Below are positions 2,739 to 49,162 of a stretch of DNA of 64,000 bases, one piece after another. Location: IMG/VR virus record IMGVR_UViG_3300012016_000001, positions 1 through 64,000 of that record, one strand, 5' to 3'. Numbering within the stretch: position 1 is the first letter of the stretch; each line of letters starts with the position of its first letter. Both the position numbers and the translations under genes were made by a program. The DNA comes from a virus. Taxonomy: Duplodnaviria; Heunggongvirae; Uroviricota; Caudoviricetes. A model generated the notes under the pieces. The model saw nothing but the letters and a program-made list of their open reading frames with translations, was not told the origin of the DNA and did no database searches.

Positions 2739-2813
2739 GGGTGGTTAGCTCAGCTGGCTGGTAGCAAATGACTGTTAATCATTAGGCCGTGGGTTCGAGT
2801 CCCACACCGCCCT
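2739..2813 (+). tRNA. tRNA-Asn(GTT)
   Basis: Hand-folded cloverleaf: acceptor GGGTGGT/ACCGCCC, anticodon loop CTGTTAA, T-arm GTGGG-TTCGAGT-CCCAC. Confidence 0.85.
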
Positions 2814-2818
2814 CTTAA

Positions 2819-2931
2819 AGGTGTGCTGCGTCCTTATGGACTACTCAGCAAATTTATTTCCTACGATCATAAATTTGTAAAATTAACACGAATGAAGGGT
2901 AAATGGATCAATCGAGGCAGGAGGCACACCT
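2819..2931 (+). ncRNA. CAGCAA-box long-range-helix element, copy E11 (variant with an extra inserted hairpin)
   Basis: AGGTGTGC (2819-2826) pairs with GCACACCT (2924-2931). CAGCAA at 2846-2851 follows a GTCC-ttat-GGAC hairpin. A second 10-bp helix, GAAGGGTAAA (2894-2903) with TTTACCCTTC (2963-2972), interleaves with it. Confidence 0.4.
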
Positions 2932-2976
2932 GTTAAATCAAAATCTGTATTAGAAAGTGAAGTTTACCCTTCTAAT

Positions 2977-3050
2977 GCTCCTTTAGCTCAGTTGGATAGA
3001 GCAATAGCCTTCTAAGCTATGGGTCGTTGGTTCGAATCCAACAGGGAGTA
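2977..3050 (+). tRNA. tRNA-Arg(TCT)
   Basis: Acceptor GCTCCTT/AGGGAGT, D-arm GCTC..GAGC, loop CTTCTAA, T-arm GTTGG-TTCGAAT-CCAAC. Confidence 0.85.
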
Positions 3051-3055
3051 CTAGT

Positions 3056-3178
3056 ATGAAAGAAAAATTAAGACAATGGTTCTATTCAATTAATGTCAAT
3101 AAGTATAGACATTATTTTGAGGAATGGTATTCCAATTTAACTCCTCAACAATTAAGATGGTATGAAAAAATATTCTAG
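3056..3178 (+). CDS. small hypothetical protein (40 aa) ending in TAG; would extend to 3208 if TAG is read through
   Basis: ATG at 3056, TAG at 3176-3178, next in-frame stop TGA at 3206-3208. Confidence 0.3.
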   Translation: MKEKLRQWFYSINVNKYRHYFEEWYSNLTPQQLRWYEKIF

Positions 3179-3210
3179 ATTAGACGAATTAAAGTAAAAA
3201 ATAAGTGAAA

Positions 3211-3834
3211 ATGAAGAAATTTTTAGTACTCATGTTTGCCTTACTAATGGCTATTAGTTTTTAGAGTTGCACCAACTGTAGTGGTAATCCCAGTCTAAAC
3301 AGTCCTGTTAAAACTGAACTTGTAGTGGATCAAGCTATTAGCTTAGATAACTAGTACATGTTCATGAATTATGGTGAGAACTATCGTTGGTTTGAAACTT
3401 GCGTTCTTATGGACGATTTCCTAGATGAGGAAACTGATGGAAGTGTTAATATGGTTGTTAATATCTATCAGGTTGCAAAAGGTGATGATAAATCTTTCGA
3501 TGTTAAAGTATTCAAGTTTCAACACTTAAAAGATGGAACTGTTTTGAAAGATTCTGTTGCTGGTTTTTGGATAGAAGATAATCCTTTGAATGATTCAACT
3601 ATAAAGATTGATTACAAGGAAGCCTTTAATCTTGTTCAAAAGGTAAATCTACCTAAACCACATACTAGAAATGCTATTCTAAGGAATCCTCTTGGTCCTC
3701 TAGACACTAATCCACAGTGGGTGTTCGGAAATATCCGTGAACAAATATGGGTGGATGCAACCACAGGAGAAATTAGAAAATCAAATCCAGCATTTCCTGA
3801 TGAATTAAAAATGCCTCTTGGTGAATGGCCCTGA
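3211..3834 (+). CDS. putative lipoprotein containing two in-frame TAG codons (3262-3264 and 3352-3354)
   Basis: ATG at 3211 encodes MKKFLVLMFALLMAISF-TAG-SC, a signal peptide plus Cys. It is in frame with track ORF 3358-3834, and the only interruptions are two TAGs. Confidence 0.55.
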
Positions 3835-3919
3835 TTTCACTCTTTGAGCTAGTTGGGAAACTAGCATGTAAAACCGATATTTTTCATAAATTATTAGGAG
3901 CTACGAGTTAGCTCCATTT

Positions 3920-3993
3920 GGGGGTAGTGGTGTAAATGGCTAACACATAATCCTTGCAAGATTAAATTTAGGGTTCGAGTCCCTCTACTTCCA
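3920..3993 (+). tRNA. tRNA-Ala(TGC)
   Basis: Acceptor GGGGGTA/TACTTCC with a G3:U70 wobble (Ala identity), loop CTTGCAA, T-loop TTCGAGT. Confidence 0.8.
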
Positions 3994-3997
3994 CATA

Positions 3998-4065
3998 CAG
4001 AAGACACACAGCAAGTGCTTTATAATAAAAAATTTTAGGGAAATTTAATAATTATAAGTCTTCTG
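3998..4065 (+). ncRNA. CAGCAA-box long-range-helix element, copy E2
   Basis: CAGAAGAC (3998-4005) pairs with GTCTTCTG (4058-4065). CAGCAA at 4009-4014. Confidence 0.5.
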
Positions 4066-4070
4066 ATTTT

Positions 4071-4146
4071 GGCTTGTTGAGCCCACTGGAGTGGGAACTT
4101 GACTGTCACTCAAGTAAAACAAAGGGATCGATACCCTTGCAGGCCG
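4071..4146 (+). tRNA. tRNA-Asp(GTC), atypical D-arm and T-loop
   Basis: Acceptor GGCTTGT/GCAGGCC, anticodon arm CTTGA-CTGTCAC-TCAAG, T-arm AAGGG-ATCGATA-CCCTT with A at position 54. Confidence 0.55.
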
Positions 4147-4203
4147 CTAAATCAAAACTAATGAGTCTCTAAAGTATTTTTAAACAATTAAAGTGTAACC
4201 TGT

Positions 4204-4461
4204 ATGATTAACTCGATTCCTATAATGGACCAGAAGATTATTGATAAGTATTTTCCTGGCCAAGCAGTCAAGTCAATCATGCGTACACCGTTAAAGTCTG
4301 TGAGAGGCTATTCACTTGAAGGAAACAAAGGATTGCTTATAAGCACTCCGAAACTTAAACACCTTCTTGCTCTTTATGCTTCTCAGATAGCGTTACAAAC
4401 AAAATGGAATACTTCCCTTAATAAGGAAGGAGACCATTTGATTTGTCTCTTGTACCCTTAA
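4204..4461 (+). CDS. hypothetical protein (85 aa) between tRNA genes
   Basis: Track ORF. It is preceded by the 15-mer AACAATTAAAGTGTA, which recurs at 8315. Coding status is uncertain. Confidence 0.3.
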   Translation: MINSIPIMDQKIIDKYFPGQAVKSIMRTPLKSVRGYSLEGNKGLLISTPKLKHLLALYASQIALQTKWNTSLNKEGDHLICLLYP

Positions 4462-4472
4462 ATGGGTAATAC

Positions 4473-4543
4473 TGGTCCTTAGTTTAGTGGTAAAACGATG
4501 GTCTCCAAAACCATTGTCATCTGTTCGATTCAGATAGGGCCTG
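4473..4543 (+). tRNA. tRNA-Trp(CCA)
   Basis: Anticodon arm ATGGT-CTCCAAA-ACCAT, T-arm ATCTG-TTCGATT-CAGAT. The acceptor has one mismatch in either register. Confidence 0.7.
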
Positions 4544-4576
4544 CAATCACTAAAGGGAAAAGAAACTGTAGTTTAT

Positions 4577-4647
4577 GGGCAATTGTCCGAGCGATTAGGT
4601 GGCGGACTGCAAATCCGTCTAGACAGGTTTGACTCCTGTATTGCCTT
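4577..4647 (+). tRNA. tRNA-Cys(GCA)
   Basis: Acceptor GGGCAAT/ATTGCCT, anticodon arm GCGGA-CTGCAAA-TCCGT, T-arm ACAGG-TTTGACT-CCTGT. Confidence 0.75.
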
Positions 4648-4685
4648 CATCAAATGATGTTGATTTTTTGCATATTAATGACTTT

Positions 4686-4713
4686 AGTGTCTGGTTCGTG
4701 AGAATAGGACACT
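4686..4713 (+). ncRNA. conserved-loop hairpin H1 (loop TGGTTCGTGAGAATAG), 9 nt upstream of a tRNA
   Basis: Stem AGTGTC/GACACT. The loop is shared with H2-H4 while the stems differ. Confidence 0.5.
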
Positions 4714-4721
4714 TTTTACAT

Positions 4722-4793
4722 CGCAGGGTAGAGCAGTGGTAGCTCGCAAGTTTCATAAGCTTGAAGTCGTTAGTTCGAATCTAACCCCTGCAA
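4722..4793 (+). tRNA. initiator-like tRNA-fMet(CAT)
   Basis: CGCAGGG..CCCTGCA gives a C1-A72 mismatch as in bacterial tRNA-fMet, and overall similarity to E. coli tRNA-fMet in the acceptor and D-arm. The anticodon stem CAAGT/GCTTG lacks the three G-C pairs. Confidence 0.75.
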
Positions 4794-4799
4794 CAAATT

Positions 4800-4883
4800 G
4801 GGAGTTTATTCCGTAAGTGGTAGCGGGGCTGACTGTAAATCAGCTTGCTTTTGCATCGGGGTGTTCGACTCACTCAGCTCCCA
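4800..4883 (+). tRNA. tRNA-Tyr(GTA), long variable arm
   Basis: Acceptor GGGAGTT/AGCTCCC, anticodon arm GCTGA-CTGTAAA-TCAGC, long variable arm, T-arm GGGTG-TTCGACT-CACTC. Confidence 0.8.
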
Positions 4884-4887
4884 CTTT

Positions 4888-4959
4888 GGCCTTATAGTTC
4901 TAATGGTAAAACACCGCACTTGTAATGCGGATTTCTCAGTTCGATTCTGGGTAGGGCCT
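4888..4959 (+). tRNA. tRNA-Thr(TGT)
   Basis: Acceptor GGCCTTA/TAGGGCC, anticodon arm CCGCA-CTTGTAA-TGCGG, T-arm CTCAG-TTCGATT-CTGGG. Confidence 0.8.
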
Positions 4960-5027
4960 CTATGCATCGGCTTAGGACTGTTGCGTTACGCTTCCTCATG
5001 GTGATACCTTTAAGGTAGAGGAAGAAA

Positions 5028-5086
5028 GGAGTACACACAGCAATGTTTTTATACAGTTATGATATTGCAGAGTTGTTTTGTACTCC
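5028..5086 (+). ncRNA. CAGCAA-box long-range-helix element, copy E3
   Basis: GGAGTACA (5028-5035) pairs with TGTACTCC (5079-5086). CAGCAA at 5038-5043. Confidence 0.5.
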
Positions 5087-5090
5087 GTAT

Positions 5091-5116
5091 GAGGTTGGCT
5101 TTGTCCAACCTCTTTT
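5091..5116 (+). terminator. terminator-like hairpin abutting the next tRNA
   Basis: GAGGTTGG (5091-5098) pairs with CCAACCTC (5105-5112), followed by TTTT. It could instead be a processing hairpin. Confidence 0.4.
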
Positions 5117-5205
5117 GCCCTCATCGTATATCGGTCAGTGCTGGAAACAGACGATTACCCCTGCCTTTTAAGCAGGTAAGCATGGTTCGACTCCATGTGG
5201 GGGCA
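5117..5205 (+). tRNA. tRNA-Lys(TTT) with about 17-nt expansion of the D-arm (89 nt)
   Basis: Acceptor GCCCTCA/TGGGGGC, anticodon arm CCTGC-CTTTTAA-GCAGG, T-arm CATGG-TTCGACT-CCATG. The D region is GTA-T-ATCG...CTG-GAAA-CAG...CGAT-TAC, an extended helix carrying a GAAA-capped hairpin. Confidence 0.6.
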
Positions 5206-5244
5206 CTATAAAAATCAAGACAATAAAAGTAGTTTTTAAGAAAT

Positions 5245-5376
5245 AAAGAAGTCTTACAGCAATAACAATTAATCTAAGTTTACCAAAAAGCGCTGAACTT
5301 GTAGTTCAATGGTAGAATACCTTTTTATTAAAAAGGAGATGACGGTTCGAATCCGTGTGGCAAAAAAGACTTCTTT
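5245..5376 (+). ncRNA. CAGCAA-box element, copy E4, enclosing a tRNA-like core without a conventional acceptor stem
   Basis: AAAGAAGTCTT (5245-5255) pairs with AAGACTTCTTT (5366-5376). CAGCAA at 5257-5262. Inside are a D-arm GTTC-AATGGTA-GAAT, the hairpin CCTTT-TTATTAA-AAAGG, and a T-arm ACGG-TTCGAAT-CCGT. Confidence 0.5.
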
Positions 5377-5379
5377 TAT

Positions 5380-5452
5380 AGAGCTATCCTCTAATAGGTT
5401 AGGAGACGTGACTGATAATCACGCAATCCCAGTTCAAGTCTGGGTAGCTCTA
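5380..5452 (+). tRNA. tRNA-Ile(GAT)
   Basis: Acceptor AGAGCTA/TAGCTCT, anticodon arm CGTGA-CTGATAA-TCACG, T-arm CCCAG-TTCAAGT-CTGGG. Confidence 0.85.
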
Positions 5453-5526
5453 CAATCGTCCAAACAAAAAGTAATACAAACAAACATTTATCAAACTAAA
5501 CATTCAGCAAAACACAATAAGAATAT

Positions 5527-5550
5527 TTCTGCTTAGGCAGAAGTGTTTTT
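5527..5550 (+). terminator. small rho-independent terminator-like hairpin
   Basis: TTCTGC-ttag-GCAGAA followed by GTGTTTTT. Confidence 0.45.
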
Positions 5551-5558
5551 AGTGTAAA

Positions 5559-5595
5559 CTCCTGGAGTACGTGTACTCTGGGAGGGTTTTGTTTT
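5559..5595 (+). terminator. rho-independent terminator
   Basis: 12-bp stem CTCCTGGAGTAC/GTACTCTGGGAG (with G-U pairs) followed by GGTTTTGTTTT. Confidence 0.65.
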
Positions 5596-5601
5596 GGACT
5601 C

Positions 5602-5631
5602 AGCCTCATCTAGTTGCAAATAGGTGAGGCT
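5602..5631 (+). ncRNA. conserved-loop hairpin H4 (loop TCTAGTTGCAAATAGG), 4 nt upstream of a tRNA
   Basis: Stem AGCCTCA/TGAGGCT. The loop is related to those of H1-H3. Confidence 0.4.
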
Positions 5632-5634
5632 TTA

Positions 5635-5709
5635 GGGGCAGTAGCGCAGGTGGTCAGTTCGCGCCAGTCTGAAAAACTGGAGATCGTGGTTCAACTCCAC
5701 GCTGCCCCA
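5635..5709 (+). tRNA. tRNA-Phe(GAA)
   Basis: Acceptor GGGGCAG/CTGCCCC, D-stem GCGC/GCGC, anticodon arm CCAGT-CTGAAAA-ACTGG, T-arm CGTGG-TTCAACT-CCACG. Confidence 0.85.
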
Positions 5710-5729
5710 CAGAATAGTATATTACTATA

Positions 5730-5798
5730 AAGAGGGCTCACAGCAAATTCATTCTAATTTTTTTCGCCATTATAAGTTTGATTAGCTAAAGCCCTCTT
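5730..5798 (+). ncRNA. CAGCAA-box long-range-helix element, copy E5
   Basis: AAGAGGGCT (5730-5738) pairs with AGCCCTCTT (5790-5798). CAGCAA at 5741-5746. Confidence 0.5.
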
Positions 5799-5805
5799 AA
5801 ATATA

Positions 5806-5869
5806 CAGGGTACAGACAGCAAACTTTATTTTAGGTTCGAACTTTTAACTCGATGTGTCTAGTACCCTG
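5806..5869 (+). ncRNA. CAGCAA-box long-range-helix element, copy E6
   Basis: CAGGGTAC (5806-5813) pairs with GTACCCTG (5862-5869), extended by AGAC/GTCT across a 1-nt bulge. CAGCAA at 5817-5822. Confidence 0.5.
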
Positions 5870-5874
5870 CCTAT

Positions 5875-5947
5875 AAAGGAGTCCTACAGCAAATTTGTCT
5901 TACATTCCGAATTGTCATTTCAGAAGAAAAAGAAAATGGACTCCTTT
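5875..5947 (+). ncRNA. CAGCAA-box long-range-helix element, copy E7
   Basis: AAAGGAGTCC (5875-5884) pairs with GGACTCCTTT (5938-5947). CAGCAA at 5887-5892. Confidence 0.55.
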
Positions 5948-5979
5948 TTAAATGAATAACCAATTATAAAATATATTAA

Positions 5980-6043
5980 GGAGGGCATGCAGCAAAAAGT
6001 TTGTAAATAGCGTGTCTGTGTAACATACTTAACAGTGCCCTCC
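5980..6043 (+). ncRNA. CAGCAA-box long-range-helix element, copy E8
   Basis: GGAGGGCA (5980-5987) pairs with TGCCCTCC (6036-6043). CAGCAA at 5990-5995. Confidence 0.5.
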
Positions 6044-6081
6044 GTTTTTATGAAAATGTTTTAACTATTTAAATAGTAACT

Positions 6082-6876
6082 ATGCAAAAATTAAATGTTT
6101 TATTAGCTCTTAGAGAGAAGTTAGCTAATCGTTATGCCCAAATGAACGGTGACTATACTTCATTCTTTAAGAACAAGCAAGGAGCGTTTCAAGGTACGCT
6201 CAAGACACACTCTCCTTTAGATGGGTATGCAGTAGATTCTACTAAAGTAGCTAATGTGAGAGTTATTACCACAGTCAATGAAAAAATGGATTGGTGGTTG
6301 AAAGAAGCTCTAGACTATTTTAACACAGCTTTGGCTATTGAAGCATCTAATGGGCAAGGTGCTCCTACAGTTGAACTAGAATTCGATGGAAGAACTTACG
6401 GTCCTTTCCCAGCTACTGTGTTATTAAGGCTTCGTGGCATTATAGAGAACGATAAGTTCGCTACAATGCTTGGTAATATTCCTGTTAGAGAGGAGACCAA
6501 AGTTTGGTTGCCTATTGATCAGGATGAAGATTACAAGAGAAGAGGTAATATCTTCCAAACAGAAAGACAAGAAGGTGAGACTCGTACTACAGAAACACAT
6601 GATGAAATCTTGAAAGATCCTAACTTAGATCCAGCTCATCTTCCTTCTAATTACCGTGCTCAAGTAACTCAAGTTAAGAGAACAGTTAAGACTGGAGATT
6701 ATACTACTCAGTCATTTACTGGTGAATGGACACATCAGCAACGTGCTAATCTTTTAAAAAGAAGAAGTGCATTGCTCGATGCTATCAATGTTGCCTTACA
6801 AAAAGTCAATGACCGTGAGGCAATTGAGTGTAAAGTAGATGATCTATTCAGACATCTCATTTATGGACAAAATTAA
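6082..6876 (+). CDS. hypothetical protein embedded in the tRNA array
   Basis: 264-aa ORF with no recognised motif. Confidence 0.55.
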   Translation: MQKLNVLLALREKLANRYAQMNGDYTSFFKNKQGAFQGTLKTHSPLDGYAVDSTKVANVRVITTVNEKMDWWLKEALDYFNTALAIEASNGQGAPTVELEFDGRTYGPFPATVLLRLRGIIENDKFATMLGNIPVREETKVWLPIDQDEDYKRRGNIFQTERQEGETRTTETHDEILKDPNLDPAHLPSNYRAQVTQVKRTVKTGDYTTQSFTGEWTHQQRANLLKRRSALLDAINVALQKVNDREAIECKVDDLFRHLIYGQN

Positions 6877-7010
6877 ACTTTAAATATTGACCCTAGCTTT
6901 AGCTTCACACTTTAGCTTTACAGAATCCTAGATAGTAAGCATCAATGTTGTGGTCAAAAGCTTTAGCGAAGTTGATTACAGTGTATTACTTACCTTGACG
7001 ACTATTATCG

Positions 7011-7154
7011 CTCGGTAATCGCGGGTTCAAATCCCGTCCCGCCCTCAAACAGAGTTCTTCTGAACTCTGCCCTTTCATGTTACTTTAGTCATTGCTTGTG
7101 AAAGTAGTGACTATATGGGCGGGTCGTCTAGTGGTTAAGACTCCGGGTTTTTAA
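7011..7154 (+). tRNA. circularly permuted tRNA-Lys(UUU)-like gene: 3' half (7011-7045) lies upstream of the 5' half (7117-7154)
   Basis: The 3' half is CTCGG-TAATC-GCGGG-TTCAAAT-CCCGT-CCCGCCC-T. The 5' half is GGGCGGG-TC-GTCT-AGTGGTTA-AGAC-T-CCGGG-TTTTTAA. Acceptor and anticodon stems are complementary only between the two halves. Neither half has a partner in the normal gene order. Confidence 0.55.
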
Positions 7155-7228
7155 GCATCAGCATTATAGGGTAAAATGTAATACGCAAAAGTTCATGGAT
7201 TAGTAAGACGGATTTGTCGCTAATCCTA

Positions 7229-7301
7229 GGGAGAGTAGCTCAGTGGTTAAAGCAATAGTCGCTAAAACTATCGATCGAGGGTTCGAATCCCTCCTCTCCT
7301 G
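7229..7301 (+). tRNA. amber-suppressor tRNA, anticodon CTA (reads UAG), with G at position 33
   Basis: A 73-nt canonical cloverleaf: acceptor GGGAGAG/CTCTCCT, anticodon arm ATAGT-CGCTAAA-ACTAT, T-arm GAGGG-TTCGAAT-CCCTC. Confidence 0.75.
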
Positions 7302-7364
7302 CTTATGTTACCATATTATATTATTTTTTCGTTAGTATCTGTCTGTGAAGATCGATACTAAGTC

Positions 7365-7459
7365 AGCGGGTTATGCAAATGGTAAAGCAGTAGTTTATCT
7401 ATGTGAGTACGTATAGTTCTAGGCCAGTACTCTTGGGAGTTCGAGTCTCTCACCCGCTA
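7365..7459 (+). tRNA. 95-nt tRNA-like gene, anticodon undetermined
   Basis: Perfect acceptor AGCGGGT/ACCCGCT, D-arm TGC-AAATGGTAAA-GCA, T-arm GGGAG-TTCGAGT-CTCTC. The 44-nt central region has no canonical 5-7-5 anticodon arm. Its best helices are GAGTAC/GTACTC and CTATG-(8 nt)-TATAG. Confidence 0.4.
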
Positions 7460-7498
7460 CAAATTAATTTAAAACAAATTGGGTAAAAAATAACCTAT

Positions 7499-7646
7499 AA
7501 AGGAGACGAACAGCAATTTCAACGTTTTGCATTTTGGTTGCCGAAGTTAGGGTTCGAATCCCTAGTCCTCCCTAATGGGAGGATTAGTGTAACTGGTAAG
7601 TGTGAAGTTAAGCACACGATAGCACGCGTTTTTGTTGGTCTCCTTT
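7499..7646 (+). ncRNA. CAGCAA-box element, copy E9, enclosing tRNA-Ser-like pieces in permuted order
   Basis: AAAGGAGAC (7499-7507) pairs with GTCTCCTTT (7638-7646). CAGCAA at 7511-7516. Inside, the T-arm TAGGG-TTCGAAT-CCCTA and GTCCTCC are followed after 6 nt by GGAGGAT, the same acceptor as the tRNA-Ser at 7851. Confidence 0.45.
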
Positions 7647-7850
7647 TAAAATATTTTCCCTCTTAAAGGTTTTGCTAGGAATCTAGCTTATCAGGGTATG
7701 CTCTAAGCTCTTAGTTACGGTGCACACGTTCTGAGTTTGAGTAGTGTATTATAAGTTCACCCATAACTGCAGATAAAAGTGAATGAAATTTACACGTCCT
7801 TAGGATTACTAAGAGGGATAAGGGAGAGATTTATTAATCTCTCCCCGAAT

Positions 7851-7940
7851 GGAGGATTAAGCCTAATTGCTAAGGCAGCGGTCTTGAAAACCGCCAGTAG
7901 TCGGTAAAACGACGTGTGGGTTGGAGTCCCACATCCTCCT
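7851..7940 (+). tRNA. tRNA-Ser(TGA), long variable arm
   Basis: Acceptor GGAGGAT/ATCCTCC, anticodon arm GCGGT-CTTGAAA-ACCGC, long variable arm, T-arm GTGGG-TTGGAGT-CCCAC. Confidence 0.85.
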
Positions 7941-7942
7941 CT

Positions 7943-8233
7943 ATGAGTAAATGTAAGACAAGTAAATGTAATGCAGCATGTTGTTACAACATCTGCTTTA
8001 AAGAGAATGAGCTTGAACGATTTTCTGTACGTATTGTAAATCCTGTTATAGATACTATTCCACTTCCTTGGGGAACTATGGCTAAAACTAATGAGAATAT
8101 GGATTTAAATAAATGTCCATTTCTTAGAAAGGATTTAAAGTGCAATATATACGAAAATCGTCCAGAGGTGTGTAGGTTGATGGGAGTTATTCCTAAGATG
8201 CCATGTAAGTATTTAAAGGAGAGTAAACCTTGA
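7943..8233 (+). CDS. YkgJ-like CxxCxxCC zinc/iron-chelating domain protein
   Basis: Motifs KCNAACCY and CPFL..KCNIYENRPEVCR. ATG at 7943; the track ORF N-terminus (7916) overlaps the tRNA-Ser. Confidence 0.6.
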   Translation: MSKCKTSKCNAACCYNICFKENELERFSVRIVNPVIDTIPLPWGTMAKTNENMDLNKCPFLRKDLKCNIYENRPEVCRLMGVIPKMPCKYLKESKP

Positions 8234-8303
8234 GGGTGATAGGGGCTGTTTGCTAAACAGTACGCTCGCTTCGGCGGGTGCGGATCGAGACCGCTGCTCT
8301 CCT
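8218..8303 (+). tRNA. tRNA-Ser(GCT), long variable arm; overlaps the last 16 nt of the upstream CDS
   Basis: Acceptor GGAGAGT/GCTCTCC, anticodon arm GCTGT-TTGCTAA-ACAGT, variable arm containing CGC-TTCG-GCG, T-arm TGCGG-ATCGAGA-CCGCT (49-65 mismatch). Confidence 0.65.
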
Positions 8304-8328
8304 CGCTAACTTTTAACAATTAAAGTGT

Positions 8329-8445
8329 ATGGAAGATTTAAATTACAAGTATGAAAAACCTGATAAACCAATTCAGGTTAATGTTCCAAGTAAACCACGA
8401 TTTAAAGTCAACCAAGAAGGTGGCGACACGCGTTGGTATACATGA
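8329..8445 (+). CDS. possible 38-aa ORF (coding status doubtful)
   Basis: ATG directly after the repeated 15-mer AACAATTAAAGTGTA. The region downstream looks structured rather than coding. Confidence 0.2.
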   Translation: MEDLNYKYEKPDKPIQVNVPSKPRFKVNQEGGDTRWYT

Positions 8446-8669
8446 ACTCCGACCATCCACAATGTCGTAAACTTAGGTGGCGTAGGAAAAGAAACTACTT
8501 TCCTGTTAGGTACGAGAACCTAATTTAGCTTTGTCAGTTTCGCTGAGGAAGAAACGACTATGTGACCTAGTCAGAAAATTAGGCAGAACTGTGGACGCAC
8601 AGCGAATAGAAGGTGGGTAAGATTGCGACTTGAGAACTCTATATGTCTTATAAACCTGCCTTCTCTTTA

Positions 8670-8743
8670 GGGCCTCTAGCACAATAGGTTAGTGCAACAG
8701 ACTCATAATCTGTAGGTTCCGAGTTCAAGCCTCGGGGGGCCCA
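8670..8743 (+). tRNA. tRNA-Met(CAT), either elongator or tRNA-Ile2 type
   Basis: Acceptor GGGCCTC/GGGGCCC, D-stem GCAC/GTGC, anticodon arm ACAGA-CTCATAA-TCTGT, T-arm CCGAG-TTCAAGC-CTCGG. Confidence 0.85.
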
Positions 8744-8759
8744 CTAAACACCTTTAAAT

Positions 8760-9554
8760 ATGAAATTAATAAGTAAAGAACGGACTGGCGGAAATCCAGC
8801 TATTGAAATTGAAATGGACAAGGTGGATAACCTAAGAGTTTTAGATATTATCCATTCTTTGGTTGATGCTCAAGGTAGAATCTATCCAATACCATTCTCC
8901 TTTATAAAGAATGATAATGAGGATACCTTGAACGTGGTAATGCAAGTGTTAGGTTTGTATACCTTTCCAACTCTTGAACTAACTGAATGGTTAGAAGAAC
9001 AAATAGATGAATACACTGAAGGTTACGAGCCTGCTATAGAAATATGTGCAGGAAGTGGATGGATAGGTAGACAACTTCAAATACCTACTACTGATGCCAA
9101 AATCCAAGAAGATCCTAAAGTGCGGAATCTATATTTAATGAGTAGTCAAATTCCTATGATATATCAGGATGATGTTGAAAAGATAGAAGCTCTTGAGGCA
9201 GTTAAAAAGTATAATCCTGAATATGTAATAGGTAGCTACGTTACTTCTACTGAAAGAATTAAGAAAAATAATAAAAGAAAGACTATCTATTTAAATATAC
9301 CTTTACCAAGCGGAGGATTTATAAAACAAAATATGATGGAGCTTGCAGAAAAGGAGATTCCGTTTTTTGGAGTTAATGTTCAAGCTATAATAAGGAGAGT
9401 GCATAAGACTTTCTTAGTTATAAATGAAAGAACCCATTATAACGAATCTTACTTGAGTATGCCACATAAGTCATATAAGTTTCCTTGGCTTGTAACTAGA
9501 GGTGATATTAAAAAAGGTCGTGTTTTAATATATGAGAACAAAGGATGGACTTGA
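8760..9554 (+). CDS. hypothetical protein, possible SAM-dependent methyltransferase fold
   Basis: AIEICAGSGWIG resembles methyltransferase motif I (weak). Confidence 0.45.
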   Translation: MKLISKERTGGNPAIEIEMDKVDNLRVLDIIHSLVDAQGRIYPIPFSFIKNDNEDTLNVVMQVLGLYTFPTLELTEWLEEQIDEYTEGYEPAIEICAGSGWIGRQLQIPTTDAKIQEDPKVRNLYLMSSQIPMIYQDDVEKIEALEAVKKYNPEYVIGSYVTSTERIKKNNKRKTIYLNIPLPSGGFIKQNMMELAEKEIPFFGVNVQAIIRRVHKTFLVINERTHYNESYLSMPHKSYKFPWLVTRGDIKKGRVLIYENKGWT

Positions 9555-9775
9555 AGTTTAGACGTTGCAAATGTTCACTTTCTCCAAAGGATATGGTTTT
9601 TACTTTTAAAACTCCAGTTAAACTCTGCGAGTATGAAGGTAAACAGTATATCATTATGGGGAGATTGAAAGAAACAAATAGAGAAAGTAAGAAATTATTA
9701 GAATTTCTATTTGGAGACGAAATTGTGTATACAAAACAATTAATATTAGTTCCAAGAGATTTCTTTTTCATCTAA
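9545..9775 (+). CDS. hypothetical protein
   Basis: 76-aa ORF overlapping the upstream stop by 10 nt. Confidence 0.4.
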   Translation: MDLKFRRCKCSLSPKDMVFTFKTPVKLCEYEGKQYIIMGRLKETNRESKKLLEFLFGDEIVYTKQLILVPRDFFFI

Positions 9776-9834
9776 GGGAGATGTGTCAGCAATTATTAAC
9801 TTTCTTATTGGTTTTAGTTTTTGGTTAGTCTCCC
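9776..9834 (+). ncRNA. CAGCAA-box long-range-helix element, copy E10
   Basis: GGGAGA (9776-9781) pairs with TCTCCC (9829-9834). CAGCAA at 9787-9792. Confidence 0.4.
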
Positions 9835-9841
9835 GTAACCT

Positions 9842-9879
9842 GGGGATAGGGTAAATGTTTACCCTTCCCCTATAATTTT
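9842..9879 (+). terminator. terminator-like hairpin
   Basis: GGGGATAGGGTAA pairs with TTACCCTTCCCC (one bulge), followed by tataatttt. Confidence 0.45.
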
Positions 9880-9886
9880 CTTAATA

Positions 9887-10696
9887 ATGTTAAATTTTGG
9901 TTTAAAACATTGTCATTCTTCTAATTGGCACAAGAAGTTTCCAAGAAAGAAGATTGAACATGAGGACCCAAAGCATCTAGGGATGCATCAACACCTTAGA
10001 CTACGTAATGAGTGGTTTGAGGGAAGACAAGGTTTTCTTTCCATTAAAGAGATTCGTAAGTTCTTGGAAGCAAATCTTGGTAAGAATGTAGATGAAGTAT
10101 TCTCTGAATTTGTTAAACGTGCTAAAAGATATAAGCATGATGTTAGTCTTAGAGAAAGATTCTTTGCACAGTTAGACCCAGACACTAGGTATGGTTCTGG
10201 TTATACTTTAGATATACAAAACAAAATAGTAAAGGTTAAAGAAATTAAAGTTCACAGGATACGTGACAACGAAGCTCGTGTATTTAATGAAGTAGCTTAT
10301 CCTTATAATATTAATCAGTATTTAAGAGAAACGGAACTTACTTATATAGGAGATTTTTATCTAAGAACTAGACATTGGAATTGGGTAAAAGCACCTGTGT
10401 ATGTATGTAGTAAGGAATGGTATAACTTAGTACTGACATATGGAGTAGGCAAGAAATATACTAAAATGAATGAAATGCAAAGGATACATATATTCTTTAA
10501 TAAGTATATTGCTGTAGGAGTTCCAAAGAAAGGATATGCTACTCGTGCTGAACCTACTGGTAATACTATATGTATCTGTAATCACGAAATGCGAGAGTAT
10601 AAACACGTTAAGTATCCATATACAACAATGGATTGCGAGTCTGATTATATCTTCCTTACTAAGGGAGGAGAAGATACTAATTGGTACGTATATTAA
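9887..10696 (+). CDS. hypothetical protein
   Basis: 269-aa ORF. Confidence 0.55.
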   Translation: MLNFGLKHCHSSNWHKKFPRKKIEHEDPKHLGMHQHLRLRNEWFEGRQGFLSIKEIRKFLEANLGKNVDEVFSEFVKRAKRYKHDVSLRERFFAQLDPDTRYGSGYTLDIQNKIVKVKEIKVHRIRDNEARVFNEVAYPYNINQYLRETELTYIGDFYLRTRHWNWVKAPVYVCSKEWYNLVLTYGVGKKYTKMNEMQRIHIFFNKYIAVGVPKKGYATRAEPTGNTICICNHEMREYKHVKYPYTTMDCESDYIFLTKGGEDTNWYVY

Positions 10697-10704
10697 ATAG
10701 ATTA

Positions 10705-11063
10705 GGGCCTGACCGGATTTGACGGCTTCTGAAGGTAAATCACTCACTCATGACTGATGGAAAGACATCAAAAAAATTAAACGGAGAAAATAACACAACT
10801 CCCCGCGCTAAAGTTGTTAGCATCGTTTATAGAGCTGCAGCTTGATCGACGCCTGGTAAAAGGGTAACCAAGGAACATAATACCCTTAATTTCTTTATTT
10901 TTAGCCAATAATATTCTGCGCCTATCGGAGATATAACTAAATAGGCTGGTGGAAAGTCAGACAACAGTCTGCCCCAGAGAAGGAAACTCTTATAAAACCT
11001 ATGAGTGTAAGAATGTGATGAGAATAGGATTCGCGGACGAGGGTTCGACTCCCTCCAGGTCCA
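10705..11063 (+). ncRNA. ssrA: tmRNA (SsrA), one-piece
   Basis: The 5' end GGGCCTGACCGGATTTGACGG and the 3' end GGACGAGGGTTCGACTCCCTCCAGGTCCA closely resemble bacterial tmRNA termini. Acceptor GGGCCTG/CAGGTCC has a G3:U70 pair. Internal tag ORF at 10783-10845. Confidence 0.88.
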
Positions 11064-11317
11064 CTTGTTAAATAATGTTAAATTTATTGTGGATTTATAT
11101 TGTTATTTATATATTTAATCCTGTAAAAACGTTCATTATAGTAAAGATAAAATGTTCCAGCACTCACGGCTACAAACTGAGTGACTAGTGTTCAACAAGA
11201 GCGCAGTATTACTATCACAGCTGAACTATAGAGGCAGTGAAGACTTTATGGTCGAACTGAGGGCAGTTTAGTCTGGAACAATCTAAGCTGTTCTCTTTAC
11301 TTGTGAAATTCATAAAT

Positions 11318-11345
11318 ACCTTTCGGTTCGTGAGAATAGAAAGGT
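11318..11345 (+). ncRNA. conserved-loop hairpin H2 (loop GGTTCGTGAGAATA), 4 nt upstream of a tRNA
   Basis: Stem ACCTTTC/GAAAGGT. The loop core is identical to H1. Confidence 0.5.
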
Positions 11346-11348
11346 TAT

Positions 11349-11421
11349 GGCGGAATGATGTTTAATGGTAGCATGCTACTTTTGGGAAGTAGTCGAGTCG
11401 GTTCGAGTCCGGTTTCTGCCA
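11349..11421 (+). tRNA. tRNA-Pro(TGG)
   Basis: Acceptor GGCGGAA/TTCTGCC, anticodon arm CTACT-TTTGGGA-AGTAG, T-loop TTCGAGT. Confidence 0.8.
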
Positions 11422-11429
11422 CTATTGTT

Positions 11430-11502
11430 GCAACGTTAGTGTTAATGGTTAGCAAGAGGCCTTGCCAAGGCTTAAGAGTGAGTTCGAATCTCATACGCTG
11501 CT
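11430..11502 (+). tRNA. tRNA-Gly(GCC)
   Basis: Acceptor GCAACGT/ACGCTGC (one A-C mismatch), anticodon arm AGGCC-TTGCCAA-GGCTT, T-arm GTGAG-TTCGAAT-CTCAT. Confidence 0.75.
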
Positions 11503-11646
11503 CTCCACCGTCGAAATGGCTGAGACGTTAAGTAATTGCCAGACAGATACCCTTACTAAAGCAACAAGGGCGTGAATTATAGGTAACCAACGAGAAGAGA
11601 ACCTTTTGAAAGAGCCCCAACCCTAAGTGGAACTGGGTGGGGACCT

Positions 11647-11717
11647 GCGGGATTCGTTCAATGGTAGGACACTAGCCTTCCAAGCCTGTGATGTCGGTTC
11701 GATTCCGGTATCCCGCA
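11647..11717 (+). tRNA. tRNA-Gly(TCC) with a weak anticodon stem
   Basis: Acceptor GCGGGAT/ATCCCGC, loop CTTCCAA. The stem CTAGC/GCCTG has two central mismatches. Confidence 0.6.
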
Positions 11718-11887
11718 CCTACAGACTATTATTGCTGCAGAAGTAATAGTATCGAAGCAGCCCATACCCTCCGTCCGGCTGGGAGAAATCGTTCGTTCCG
11801 TACCTGAGCACCGAGGTATCTGTAGAAGCGTTAGTTAGAGTTACCTATGAGGGACGAGATGCCCTGTTGAAACTCGAAGGTGTACAT

Positions 11888-11961
11888 GGTGTAGATGGCC
11901 GAGTGGTTTAGGCGCAAGTTTGTGGCACTTGTTTACGCAGGTTCGAATCCTGTTCTACACC
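11888..11961 (+). tRNA. tRNA-His(GTG) with a G-1:C73 pair
   Basis: G-1 plus acceptor GTGTAGA/TCTACAC plus C73. Anticodon arm CAAGT-TTGTGGC-ACTTG, T-arm GCAGG-TTCGAAT-CCTGT. Confidence 0.85.
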
Positions 11962-11979
11962 CAATTAAATATTTTAATT

Positions 11980-12183
11980 ATGAAAGAAAGAATAAGAAAG
12001 ATTATTGAAAGAATTACTGAACGTAAAATTACAAATGATGATGAGCCTATAGAGATGGATAGTATAGACACTATGGAAGTTATAGTAAGTCTAGAGTATG
12101 AATATGACATCCATATAGATACTATTATAAAGGAGGATTTATCATTAAATGATTACGTTGAGTTAGTTAGGAGCATGGTGTAA
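11980..12183 (+). CDS. acyl carrier protein-like small protein
   Basis: 67 aa with EMDSIDTMEVIVSLEYEY, which matches the ACP DSLD phosphopantetheine-site helix. The track ORF N-terminus overlaps tRNA-His. Confidence 0.55.
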   Translation: MKERIRKIIERITERKITNDDEPIEMDSIDTMEVIVSLEYEYDIHIDTIIKEDLSLNDYVELVRSMV

Positions 12184-12252
12184 TGGTAGCACATCTGACT
12201 TTGACTCAGAAGGGAGCGTGAGCCACTGCAGGTTCGAGTCCTGCTGCTCCTA
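12169..12252 (+). tRNA. tRNA-Gln(TTG) with a 17-nt variable region; overlaps the last 15 nt of the ACP-like CDS
   Basis: Acceptor AGGAGCA/TGCTCCT, anticodon arm TCTGA-CTTTGAC-TCAGA, variable region AGGGAGCGTGAGCCACT (GC-GTGA-GC mini-hairpin), T-arm GCAGG-TTCGAGT-CCTGC. Confidence 0.7.
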
Positions 12253-12290
12253 CTTGTCTCCATTAAGGAGAATTTTAAAGGTGTTTGTTC

Positions 12291-12320
12291 AACTCACTGG
12301 TTTGCGAAAATAGGTGAGTT
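12291..12320 (+). ncRNA. conserved-loop hairpin H3 (loop TGGTTTGCGAAAATAG), 6 nt upstream of a tRNA
   Basis: Stem AACTCAC/GTGAGTT. Confidence 0.5.
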
Positions 12321-12325
12321 TAAAT

Positions 12326-12410
12326 GCTGCGTTCGACTAGTGGCTTAGGTCACAAGACTTTCAATCTTGTAGGATGAAAATCCTCAGGGGTTCGAATCCC
12401 CTACGCAGTA
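12326..12410 (+). tRNA. tRNA-Glu(TTC) with a 16-nt variable arm
   Basis: Acceptor GCTGCGT/ACGCAGT, anticodon arm CAAGA-CTTTCAA-TCTTG, variable arm T-AGGAT-GAAA-ATCCT-C, T-arm AGGGG-TTCGAAT-CCCCT. Confidence 0.75.
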
Positions 12411-12414
12411 CTAA

Positions 12415-12488
12415 GGGAGCTTAGTTCAGTGGTTTAGAACACTGCCCCTACAAGGCAGGAGTCGATAGTTCGAATCTATCAGTTCCCA
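12415..12488 (+). tRNA. tRNA-Val(TAC) with C at position 33
   Basis: Acceptor GGGAGCT/AGTTCCC, anticodon arm CTGCC-CCTACAA-GGCAG, T-arm GATAG-TTCGAAT-CTATC. Confidence 0.8.
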
Positions 12489-12515
12489 CGACAACTTTGT
12501 AAATCAACTGGGAAA

Positions 12516-26298: not shown

Positions 26299-27551
26299 AA
26301 ACGTTAAAATTTCTTAAGGACTGGTTTTGATGATTCATATTTTCTATATTAGTTATAATAAAATTATAACAATATGGAAATTAATGAAAAAATTGAAACT
26401 GGAGTCAAAATGTACCTGAATGGTGATGGCACATTAACACAATTACAGAGTATACTTGGAATTAGTAAAGATTTAATAGTAGCTAGATTAAAGGAATTAG
26501 GATATACAATTAAAAGAGGCTATAAACTATCTACAGTAATAGGGTTAAAGGCTGCTACTGAAGAATATTTAGCTAATTATAATAATAATCCTAGTTTGAC
26601 TCAAATAGCTGCTAAACATGGAATAAAAAGACAAACTCTTTCTTCACACGTTAAAGAATTAGGTTATGAAGTTATTAATCATCAAGATAGATTGAAATTT
26701 GATAACACTATATTTGATAGCATTGATACAGAAGAAAAGGCTTATTGGTTAGGATTTATATTTGCAGATGGATATGTAAGTGATAATAATGATTTTGAAG
26801 TATCTTTAAGTATTAAAGATTTTACTCACTTAAATTTATTGCATTTATTTATGAAGACTGAAAAGCCTGTCGGATTTAATGAGACTAGATGTAGACTATG
26901 TGTGAGAGATACTCACTTAGTAAATACTCTTAAGTCTTATGGTTGTATACCAAGAAAATCCTTAGTCTTAGAATTTCCAGAAGAAAAAATCTTTAAAGAT
27001 ATTAAACTTATAAGACATTTTATAAGAGGATTTGTTGATGGGGATGGATGCATTACTTACATCAATAAGGAACATACAAAGCCTCAACTCTCTATTTTAG
27101 GAACAGAGCAATTTCTAAATAAACTTCAGGAGTATTTACCTATTGATTTTATACATCAATTAGGATATAATAATAAATCTAAGAGTTTAGTAACTAGAGT
27201 TTTATCCTTTAATGGAAGTACTGCTTACAATGTTTGTAAGTTTCTATATCAAAATTCTAAAGTGTACCTAGATAGAAAATATGAGAAATTTTTAGAAATT
27301 TGCCGTTCAGAGGAGGAATCTTCTGAATTATTACTGGGCAAAAACGGTGAAGGCTGTGATGCTCCCGCCGTGGTAAATTCAGAAATTGCGAAAGGTTCTG
27401 AATCACCGTACAGCGTAGAGAGTGAATAAATATAATCTCTCCAAGAGTGCCTGGCACCCCAACTGAAATAAGTGGGTGAAAACGTACGCGGGACTTAAGC
27501 AAATAAGAAGCTTAAGAAACTAAGATAAAAAGCTTAGTGGTAACAAAATCG
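26299..27551 (+). mobile_element. group I intron carrying a LAGLIDADG homing endonuclease gene
   Basis: Splicing GGT|...tcG|AAG ACT ACC restores GGTGSGKTTF. The 5' exon ends in T and the intron ends in G. GC-rich paired segments occur near the ORF 3' end and downstream of it. Confidence 0.6.
26374..27429 (+). CDS. LAGLIDADG homing endonuclease (double motif) with N-terminal HTH-like repeats
   Basis: YWLGFIFADGYV and IRGFVDGDGCI motifs. Confidence 0.8.
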   Translation: MEINEKIETGVKMYLNGDGTLTQLQSILGISKDLIVARLKELGYTIKRGYKLSTVIGLKAATEEYLANYNNNPSLTQIAAKHGIKRQTLSSHVKELGYEVINHQDRLKFDNTIFDSIDTEEKAYWLGFIFADGYVSDNNDFEVSLSIKDFTHLNLLHLFMKTEKPVGFNETRCRLCVRDTHLVNTLKSYGCIPRKSLVLEFPEEKIFKDIKLIRHFIRGFVDGDGCITYINKEHTKPQLSILGTEQFLNKLQEYLPIDFIHQLGYNNKSKSLVTRVLSFNGSTAYNVCKFLYQNSKVYLDRKYEKFLEICRSEEESSELLLGKNGEGCDAPAVVNSEIAKGSESPYSVESE

Positions 27552-37733: not shown

Positions 37734-37782
37734 TCTTGAGAATTACATAATTATTTATTATATTTAATATCTTGTGTTAAAT

Positions 37783-48890: not shown

Positions 48891-49162
48891 TTCCTTCTAA
48901 GTTTAAAATTGGAGCACAGTGGTTTACTGTAGAATTTGTAGATGAATTAGATGAAGAATATGGAGAATTTAGCTATACTCCTCCTATTATAAAGATAGCG
49001 AAAACATTAGACGGAGAGGAAATTCCTCAAAACCAGCTAGAAGCAACTTTCTGGCATGAATTTTTTCATGCTTTTCAGTACATGTTTAATTGTGAGACCG
49101 ATGAAACACAAGCTCAATGTTTTTCTAACTTTATGATGGAGTTTTTAGAAACTAGACAATGA
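48887..49162 (+). CDS. small HExxH motif protein (metallopeptidase-like)
   Basis: FWHEFFHAF. Confidence 0.4.
   Translation: MIPSKFKIGAQWFTVEFVDELDEEYGEFSYTPPIIKIAKTLDGEEIPQNQLEATFWHEFFHAFQYMFNCETDETQAQCFSNFMMEFLETRQ

Follow-up and report, generated by a model that had tools for sequence, protein, structure and literature searches.

The stretch analysed here comprises positions 1 to 64,000 of the IMG/VR virus record IMGVR_UViG_3300012016_000001 (Caudoviricetes; the whole 64,000-nucleotide (nt) stretch is called the window). At about 6888-7226 on its + strand lies a circularly permuted, transfer RNA (tRNA)-like unit, in which a tRNA-like 3' half stands upstream of the matching 5' half and the flanking leader and trailer can pair with each other. 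The original prediction had read it as a permuted tRNA-Lys(UUU) gene, and direct reading of the window placed every listed element of both halves at its claimed coordinates. The unit and its immediate neighbours are laid out as follows.

6082-6876, + strand: DUF7873 gene (Pfam DUF7873, 1.7e-32), immediately upstream of the RNA
6888-6980, + strand: leader domain, with a hairpin stem TTGACC (6888-6893)/GGTCAA (6953-6958) around AGCTTTAG-type repeats and AATCCTAGAT
6958-6967, + strand: additional AAGCTTTAGC copy in the leader
6981-6994, + strand: 5' strands of the closing helices, H1 GTGTATTAC (6981-6989, partner 7178-7186) and H2 TTACC (6990-6994, partner 7170-7174)
6995-7010, + strand: 5'-side internal loop, made of a TTGACGA bulge, the H3 strand CTATTAT (7002-7008) and CG
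7011-7046, + strand: tRNA-like 3' half, made of CTCGG (7011-7015), TAATC, the T-arm GCGGG-TTCAAAT-CCCGT (7021-7037), CCCGCCC (7038-7044), T73 and C74
7047-7116, + strand: acceptor-'loop' spacer with two local hairpins, unconserved
7117-7147, + strand: tRNA-like 5' half, made of GGGCGGG (7117-7123), TC, the D-arm GTCT-AGTGGTTA-AGAC (7126-7141), T and CCGGG (7143-7147)
7148-7169, + strand: 3'-side internal loop, made of TTTTTAA, AGCATCAG (a copy of the AGCWTYAR motif) and the H3 strand ATTATAG
7170-7186, + strand: 3' strands of the closing helices, H2 GGTAA, a 3-nt AAT bulge and H1 GTAATACGC
7198-7226, + strand: trailer hairpin GGATTAG...CTAATCC with the loop ACGGATTTGT, ending 2 nt short of the next tRNA
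7229-7302, + strand: normal-order tRNA (ARAGORN; Rfam tRNA, 60 bits) with the anticodon loop CGCTAAA

The flanking pairs described earlier were present (GTATTAC 6983-6989 with GTAATAC 7178-7184, TTACC 6990-6994 with GGTAA 7170-7174, and CTAT 7002-7005 with ATAG 7166-7169), and H1 proved longer than first described, spanning 9 base pairs (bp) between 6981-6989 and 7178-7186. H3 (CTATTAT 7002-7008 with ATTATAG 7163-7169) is paired at six of its seven positions and is weakly supported; the 5'-side internal loop that holds its first strand is 13-26 nt long across relatives. Both halves carry tRNA hallmarks, with T8, A14, G15 and G18 G19 in the 5' half and a 5-nt variable loop containing C48 in the 3' half.

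When 6960-7200 was folded in its native order, the acceptor, anticodon and leader-trailer helices formed together as a nested structure at -75.9 kcal/mol (z = -4.4, with none of 200 shuffles as good); the leader folded alone was no better than shuffles (z = 0.08). When 7117-7154 was joined in silico to 7011-7045, ARAGORN called the resulting 73-nt sequence tRNA-Lys(ttt), and the native locus received no call from either ARAGORN or Rfam. A promoter and terminator scan of the + strand showed no σ70 promoter and no intrinsic terminator in the unit, spacer included, so that neither separates the two halves, which lie on the same strand. The AGCTTTAG-type motif occurs in three copies in the leader and one in the junction loop, and these copies are candidate protein-binding sites.

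Conservation and covariation of the unit

A nucleotide search of the locus against 50,697 annotated phage genomes gave no match, nor did a search of viral contigs for the exact permuted-arrangement pattern. Relatives were found through the adjoining DUF7873 protein, which led to three viral contigs with 80-84% amino-acid identity, and through an invariant 18-mer of the leader, which led to about 20 further loci from viral and metagenome collections once the chance matches, which made up most of its 88 metagenome matches, had been filtered out. The unit was present at the same locus in L001-L003, L007, L020, L022, L027, L028, L036, L065, L066, L080 and L098, and also in the distant L116, L118, L119, L120 and L121, reached through DUF7873 homologues of 42-48% identity, where it lies 130-260 nt downstream of the DUF7873 gene. 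At least 19 distinct relatives or independent assemblies, from different samples, showed the same arrangement, and the order common to the relatives found through the leader 18-mer and DUF7873 was leader, 3' half, spacer, 5' half, trailer and normal tRNA. The spacer ranged from 18 to 103 nt with unrelated sequence between lineages, L003 having 18 nt only. The acceptor 5' strands also varied (GGGCGGG, GGGCGAT, GGGGATA, GGGGCTG, GGGGGCA, GGGGCTA, GGGCGAG, GGGGGTA and GGGGGAG) with complementarity kept.

Covariation was counted in a gapless 88-column alignment of helix segments from 14 distinct orthologues, in which L028 and L080 (each with an equally scoring alternative pairing) and L007 (with a shifted register) were set by hand to the homologous register. 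Standard pairs filled 99.4% of the 504 pair cells, compared with 38-52% when the partners were slid, although the paired percentage is inflated because the segments were chosen partly for their pairing ability. The double changes are unaffected by this choice: both sides had changed in 25 of the 36 pairs, and none of 500 shuffles reached the covariation score. Compensatory changes affected every helix, including four of the nine pairs of H1 and all five of H2, so that the acceptor, anticodon and leader-trailer helices each showed them. The Levitt tertiary pair 15:48 covaried as well, from G15:C48 to A15:T48 in L003 and L007. Among the features that stayed fixed were the tRNA-like signature bases (T8, A14, G18 G19, T54 T55 C56 R57 A58), the pairs G1-C72, G2-C71 and G3-C70 in all 14 orthologues, and the 3-nt bulge between H2 and H1, which reads AAT, AAG, AAA or AAC in all relatives.

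In the flanking domains, the leader is nearly invariant among close relatives, and its stem covaries in distant ones (TTGACC/GGTCAA; TCGACT/AGTCGA in L118; TCGACA/TGTCGA in L120 and L121). TTGACC had to be considered as a possible -35 box; because it covaries with GGTCAA, and the + strand promoter scan was empty, we ruled this out and regard the pair as an RNA helix. The trailer hairpin covaries locally (GGTCAG/CTGATC in L003, GGAATAG/CTATTCC in L028, and an inner stem ATGC/GCAT in L036) and the leader stays fixed, and a pairing of the leader AATCCTAG with the trailer GGATT was rejected on these grounds. The conserved arrangement and the covariation thus show that the element is a real RNA structure under strong selection rather than the relic of a rearrangement or an artefact of assembly, confirming the permuted tRNA-like element with leader-trailer pairing of the original prediction.

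Acceptor end and anticodon-stem junction

In all 22 tRNA genes that ARAGORN called in the window (2739-12489), N73 and C74 are encoded and followed by T, A or G, so that the first C of CCA alone is templated, which implies a uniform rule of 3'-end maturation in this phage. In the unit, the 7-bp acceptor stem is followed by T73-C74-A, and the 'TC' after the acceptor 3' strand is invariant in all orthologues. This end therefore looks like that of a true tRNA precursor, and its 7-bp stem and N73-C74, shared with all 22 tRNAs, make it likely that RNase P cleavage and CCA completion convert the unit into a two-piece RNA.

The identity as tRNA-Lys(UUU) did not survive comparison with the relatives, in which the presumed anticodon loop varied in both length and sequence. 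The 7-mer after the 5' anticodon-stem strand read TTTTTAA, TTTAATT, TTGAAAT, TTAAAAT, TTAAAGT, TTAGTTT, TTCAAAG and others in close relatives, and CATATAT, CATAAAA, CAAATTT or AAATATT in distant ones. Even near-identical relatives differed (TTGAAAT, TTAAAAT and TTAAAGT; TTTAATT versus TTAGTTT), and the conserved AGCWTYAR motif 3' of this region stood at a variable distance of 5-16 nt. 'Position 33' was A, not U, in L116, L118, L120 and L121, and 'position 37' was a pyrimidine in four close lineages; because the 7-mer differs in this way, neither U33 nor a purine at 37 is conserved. None of the 22 tRNAs that ARAGORN found in the window, alongside a transfer-messenger RNA (tmRNA), was a tRNA-Lys, and ordinary tRNA-Lys(ttt) genes are already present in L003 and L116.

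Permuted tRNA genes are known from Cyanidioschyzon merolae and from some green algae, and Nanoarchaeum has split tRNAs. In the C. merolae and Nanoarchaeum systems, a bulge-helix-bulge (BHB) motif is cut by the archaeal/eukaryal splicing endonuclease and the exact tRNA loop is restored. The unit resembles the C. merolae type in that its 3' half precedes its 5' half on a single strand, in its leader-trailer pairing and in an acceptor end of the kind opened by RNase P and 3' processing, but it differs in lacking a BHB and a conserved anticodon loop, in the absence of such an enzyme among the window ORFs scanned, and in its bacterial host context (tmRNA, σ70 gene). The leader-trailer junction has no BHB motif: it consists of a single unopposed 3-nt bulge, a 5-bp helix, a bulge of 6-13 nt and an internal loop that is large and asymmetric, and the lengths of its two sides do not sum to a constant, the side from H2 to the anticodon stem measuring 13-26 nt. 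Pfam scans of the open reading frames (ORFs) of at least 150 amino acids (aa) in the window found neither a tRNA-splicing endonuclease (tRNA_int_endo) nor RtcB. Together, these results speak against the maturation by cleavage and ligation that had been proposed. Of the two repair enzymes invoked for that route, the T4-like Pnkp was confirmed (52750-53649, AAA_33 and HAD_PNKP), but the 'RNA ligase' is only a weak match (49159-50553, E = 0.004); the ORF at 47500-48708 encodes an ATP-dependent DNA-ligase-type enzyme.

YrlA likeness and a Ro60-like protein

YrlA RNAs consist of a T stem-loop, an acceptor stem-loop and a D stem-loop, and the stem that binds Ro60 is made from the two ends of the RNA; their tertiary pairs are of the tRNA kind, with 15:48 covarying, and they are reported from 254 bacterial species and 22 phages (PMC4201824). 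In M. smegmatis, where the YrlA acceptor stem measures 7 bp, RNase P cleaves the RNA and CCA is added to it in vivo (PMC4201824, Chen et al. 2014). The original prediction had known of no phage or bacterial example of a permuted arrangement, but these Y RNAs share the permuted tRNA-like architecture (PMC4201824).

The likeness of the unit to YrlA (Rfam RF02553) extends to the permuted domain of T-arm, acceptor stem and D-arm, to the tRNA invariant bases, to the covarying 15:48 pair and to four stems that covary, and its 7-bp acceptor stem is that of the M. smegmatis RNA. Its anticodon stem runs on into a stem made by the flanks (H1, 9 bp; H2, 5 bp), which replaces the anticodon loop. A Ro60-type gene lies on the same strand, several Y-like RNAs occur per genome, and both this RNA and YrlA occur in phages. 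The RF02553 model matched sibling units near the Ro60-like gene, over its full length in L115 (728-848, 37.9 bits, E = 4e-5) and also in L106 (11144-11214, E = 0.0015) and L118 (10203-10320, E = 0.003), as well as the short-spacer orthologue of the unit itself in L080 (1234-1315, 27.3 bits, E = 0.057); all of these matches fall below the Rfam gathering threshold of 69 bits. We consider it probable that the element is the tRNA-like core of a YrlA/Y-RNA-like non-coding RNA of about 300-350 nt (approximately 6888-7226) that works with a phage Ro60-like protein.

3-809, + strand: 3' part of the Ro60-like gene (DUF2828 / DUF7788 / Ro60-type vWA), cut by the window's left edge

The ORF at 3-809 matched Pfam DUF7788 (5e-10) and vWA_Ro60 (1e-5) and is 77% identical to residues 333-597 of a 599-aa protein in L098, a full-length form that adds Pfam DUF2828. 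Sequence searches against the PDB were not significant (best match human RO60, E = 0.36), and only fold comparison was decisive for the kinship with Ro60. An AF2/AlphaFold model of an 85%-identical homologue (pLDDT 89, pTM 0.88) had nine best PDB matches that were all Ro60/TROVE structures, aligned at full length over about 600 columns (E = 7e-9 to 6e-6), with only isolated vWA domains at lower ranks. Judged by this predicted structure, the phage is shown to encode a Ro60-like ring protein (a TROVE-type ring plus vWA), on the + strand like the RNA. At E <= 1e-5, its DUF2828 family comprised 1,238 homologues, among them proteins of Listeria, Campylobacter, Bacillus and Enterococcus phages, and some phage annotations name homologues 'putative ribonucleoprotein'. 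In L118, a RAGATH-1 hammerhead ribozyme above the Rfam threshold lies upstream of the Ro60-like gene (709-785, 69.8 bits).

The gene adjoining the RNA encodes DUF7873, for which a confident model gave no PDB fold match and which had no PHROG match. The order DUF7873-then-RNA was invariant in every relative's locus. The Ro60-like gene directly precedes or overlaps the DUF7873 gene in L114, L118 and L119 and lies 1.5 kilobases (kb) from it in L121; in the window's lineage, the two genes are 5-9 kb apart with mostly tRNA and small-RNA genes between them. The distance from the Ro60-like gene to the RNA is about 950 nt in L118 and L119, and in L121 the RNA lies 1.3 kb upstream of the gene.

Several observations weigh against a YrlA-like RNA with a Ro60-like partner. 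RF02553 gave no match on window positions 6870-7700 at E <= 10 and none for the L116, L118 and L121 orthologues. The motif GNCGAAN0-1G of the YrlA 5' strand is the presumed Ro60 contact (PMC4201824), and it is absent from the unit, where the window has TTGACGACTAT (GACGAC), a sequence that varies among relatives. At about 300 nt, the unit is two to three times larger than YrlA. The protein has no direct Pfam TROVE match and is a DUF2828-family relative, not a canonical Rsr. In the window, its gene lies 6.2 kb upstream of the RNA on the same strand, compared with the 4 kb within which published YrlAs lie, and L120 has no Ro60-like gene within 4 kb. The tightest synteny of the RNA is with DUF7873, whose fold is unmatched, so that the direct partner could be DUF7873 and not the Ro60-like protein. 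The unit further differs from YrlA in having a conserved 95-nt leader domain, a 3' hairpin and an acceptor-loop insert of 18-103 nt, and in a locus where the presumed partner is a DUF2828-family Ro60 relative and a DUF7873 gene always adjoins.

If the element is a YrlA-like RNA, it would be transcribed as one precursor together with the downstream tRNA. RNase P would cut 5' of G7117, and the 3' side would be trimmed after T73-C74 and completed to CCA, discarding the spacer and leaving a two-piece RNA that the acceptor and anticodon helices hold together along with H2 and H1, on the pattern demonstrated for the YrlA of M. smegmatis. Its anticodon stem would end in no decoding loop and would instead run through the large internal loop into the flank-made H2 and H1. 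This stem and the repeat motifs may dock the Ro60-like protein, DUF7873 or both, and the tRNA-shaped end may engage tRNA-recognising enzymes. A likely role during infection, alongside the 22 tRNAs, the tmRNA and Pnkp, would be in tRNA or RNA surveillance, in repair or as a decoy.

Other explanations account for parts of these data. As a true permuted tRNA-Lys(UUU) gene, the unit would be cut as its leader-trailer pairing directs, healed by Pnkp and sealed by a ligase, with RNase P and 3' processing at the acceptor end. This would explain why the joined halves are called tRNA-Lys(ttt) in a window where ARAGORN shows no tRNA-Lys, why the acceptor end has a genuine tRNA-gene context and why Pnkp is encoded, and it fits the TT found right after the anticodon stem in 13 of 14 close orthologues. 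It is very improbable nonetheless, given a loop region of 5-16 nt that changes between near-identical relatives, a pyrimidine at 37 in four lineages and no U33 in four others, junction sides that do not compensate, a single 3-nt bulge and hence no BHB, no splicing endonuclease or RtcB among the ORFs scanned, normal tRNA-Lys(ttt) genes in L003 and L116, and sibling modules whose acceptor stems are closed by loops of 3-11 nt and so cannot be tRNAs. Less credible again is a two-piece permuted tmRNA-like gene with a mini tag frame GCN-TTA/TCA-NNN-TAA after the anticodon-stem strand. As in the two-piece tmRNA genes of alpha-proteobacteria and cyanobacteria (RF04321, RF01851), the acceptor piece lies upstream of the piece with the 5' acceptor strand, and the mature RNA would rely on the acceptor stem and a long helix to keep its pieces together in trans. 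The cyano_tmRNA and tmRNA_permuted models gave weak partial matches on L005 6233-6287 (E = 0.015 and 0.96), covering the T-arm and acceptor stem only, and most relatives have a short GCN-to-stop frame. The G3-C70 pair of all 14 orthologues, in place of the G3:U70 needed for alanylation, essentially excludes this reading; moreover, the unit combines a full D-arm with an anticodon stem of 5 bp, both missing from tmRNA, shows no pseudoknots and no credible tag frame, and shares the window with a standard tmRNA (10705-11064). The tiny frame (for example ALA*, ALV* or ASA*, within the junction motif at 7154-7169) recurs in nearly all relatives; it spans 3-4 codons inside the helical junction, and we judge it to be a coincidence, given that the non-coding leader contains three copies of the same AGCTTTAG motif. 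Practically no weight falls on a permuted intron-exon arrangement, in which the 134-nt leader and the 74-nt trailer would be group I intron halves that circularise the exons. Conservation is higher in the flanks than in the tRNA-like halves, and the flanks add up to about 208 nt, a length that matches the smallest tRNA group I introns, but Intron_gpI had no match at E <= 10, a plausible P7/P3/P8 core was absent, the sole R-like string (GACGACTAT) is separated from the exon by 10 nt, no G is conserved just ahead of the 3' half (where the sequence ends in TCG, AGT, AAA, GTA, TAG and others), and the conserved part of the trailer is a simple covarying hairpin. Flanking self-cleaving ribozymes were also considered, and no Rfam ribozyme matched the unit. 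Two decaying tRNA fragments left by rearrangement or by tandem duplication and deletion, or an assembly artefact, would fit halves without a conventional-order partner and the readiness with which tRNA arrays rearrange. This has a negligible chance of being right, being already refuted by the recurrence in at least 19 independent assemblies with a neighbouring protein diverged to 42-48% identity, and by the co-evolution of the halves in every helix and in the tertiary pair.

The strongest competitor is a two-piece, CCA-ended tRNA-like RNA that acts with DUF7873 alone, as an aminoacylatable cofactor, an anticodon-nuclease decoy or a regulator of the downstream tRNA operon. The one invariant adjacency at every locus is DUF7873-then-RNA, L120 lacks a nearby Ro60-like gene, the published Ro60-binding motif is missing from the unit, and the unit offers a tRNA-type N73-C74 end and four AGCTTTAG-type copies as possible protein-binding sites. 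We regard it as unlikely, though worth keeping in view: the close linkage of DUF7873 with the Ro60-like gene (adjoining or overlapping in L114, L118 and L119, 1.5 kb away in L121) points to a single module of three parts and not to independence, no RNA-binding or catalytic fold is recognisable in DUF7873, and aminoacylation is pure conjecture. A bolder proposal, which we put forward only tentatively and hold less likely than not, is that the DUF2828-type Ro60-like ring protein, DUF7873 and the RNA of about 300 nt constitute an undescribed three-part ribonucleoprotein module of large gut and rumen phages, surrounded by arrays of stem-ACAGCAA small RNAs, in which the RNA, opened by RNase P and completed to CCA, would serve as a chargeable two-piece scaffold or decoy in tRNA repair or anticodon-nuclease evasion.

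On the YrlA-like interpretation that we prefer, what appeared to be the bacterial world's first permuted tRNA gene would be a tRNA mimic, which advises caution in reading split or permuted signatures as tRNA genes. Ro60/Y-RNA biology would then extend from canonical TROVE proteins and mycobacteriophages to the large, unstudied DUF2828 family, and an RNA absent from Rfam would have two named candidate partners in the Ro60-like protein and DUF7873. The tRNA-type end signals make the cleaved, CCA-tailed Y RNA of M. smegmatis look like a conserved, selected feature, and processing of the acceptor end would be relevant to the means by which phages shield tRNAs from host nucleases or repair them.

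Sibling modules, small units and other features

A purpose-written scanner for permuted tRNA-like modules recovered the unit in all relatives, together with further modules in which a loop of 3-11 nt caps the 7-bp acceptor stem. Such short-loop modules lie 200-600 nt downstream of the Ro60-like gene in the distant phages L106, L109 and L115. Others, at L001 7701-7768 and 10373-10446 and also in L022, L036 and L055, are flanked by the leader GTTACTTACAAT and the trailer TTAAGTAAC with a T-run and carry the 5' motif CTTACAA, unlike a second family of small units with the layout [7-9 bp stem]-N0-3-CAGCAA(A)-variable body-[stem'].

7499-7646, + strand: second, smaller Y-RNA-like unit with the terminal stem AAAGGAGAC/GTCTCCTTT followed by a T-run, and 5' GACGAACAGCAA
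2639-2710, 3998-4065, 5028-5086, 5247-5374, 5730-5798, 5806-5869, 5876-5946, 5980-6043 and 7499-7646, + strand: small stem-CAGCAA units of the window
L106 10912-11393, L107 7241-7641, L109 5215-5891, L112 11048-11594, L113 10764-11169 and L115 514-1017: small-unit arrays of relatives

The unit at 7499-7646 contains a permuted module (7538-7611) with the acceptor stem GGAGGAT/GTCCTCC closed by a 5-nt loop, and its GACGAACAGCAA holds the YrlA-type GNCGAA core (GACGAA at about 7505); Rfam gave no call on this unit. Small stem-CAGCAA and YrlA-like units cluster beside the Ro60-like gene. Across 19 Ro60-like loci, 110 small units lay on the strand of the gene and 11 on the opposite one, and tandem arrays of 4-7 units with TGATAAG-like linkers begin 9-370 nt after the gene. 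The Rfam model of Dictyostelium class I RNA (RF01414) gave weak, sub-threshold matches on some of the small units, such as L109 5462-5515 (32.6 bits, E = 0.013). These class I RNAs, which are said to occur in dictyostelids only, have a short stem and an adjacent 11-nt motif with T3, C6, C9, A10 and A11 invariant (PMC7919456). The small units resemble them in having a short terminal stem, ...ACAGCAA after its 5' strand and then a variable body, but are phage and not amoeba sequences, and the permuted unit itself has no CAGCAA motif. These likenesses hint that ACAGCAA small-RNA arrays resembling class I RNAs may be partners of DUF2828-type Ro60 relatives. Within the stem-CAGCAA unit at 5247-5374, positions 5302-5357 gave a partial Rfam tRNA match (model positions 8-63, 35.8 bits) without acceptor strands, and this is probably a tRNA-like module embedded in a Y-like unit.

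The tRNA that follows the permuted unit (7229-7302; L001 7252-7323, L003 7099-7172, L002 7184-7254) has the loop C-G-NNN-A-A, with G at position 33 in place of the near-universal U. Its triplet is CTA, CCA or TGA, with the loop CACAAAT in L002, and because the triplet varies, ARAGORN calls it Pyl/amber suppressor, Trp, Ser or Cys. Window positions 7365-7459 hold a further tRNA-like gene (Rfam tRNA, 33 bits) whose anticodon region is longer by about 27 nt and which corresponds to the CTA (amber-suppressor-like) tRNA that ARAGORN called at L002 7331-7408; it may reflect stop-codon recoding or an intron-like insert. The tmRNA at 10705-11064 is a one-piece phage tmRNA within the tRNA array (ARAGORN; Rfam 68 bits) with the tag GENNTTPRAKVVSIVYRAAA*.

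Two further loci of the window may be interrupted. The anaerobic ribonucleotide reductase gene nrdD is apparently split over 37774-39573, 39736-40497 and 40403-40978, with Pfam NRDD positions 7-414 and 415-560 in separate ORFs and an HNH endonuclease ORF between them, which looks like an intron or a homing-endonuclease insertion. The ORF at 26374-27429 encodes a LAGLIDADG homing-endonuclease domain and a helix-turn-helix; it lies just upstream of a DnaB-like helicase fragment (27537-28490) that matches profile positions 32-240 only, and this region may represent another mobile insertion in a replication gene.

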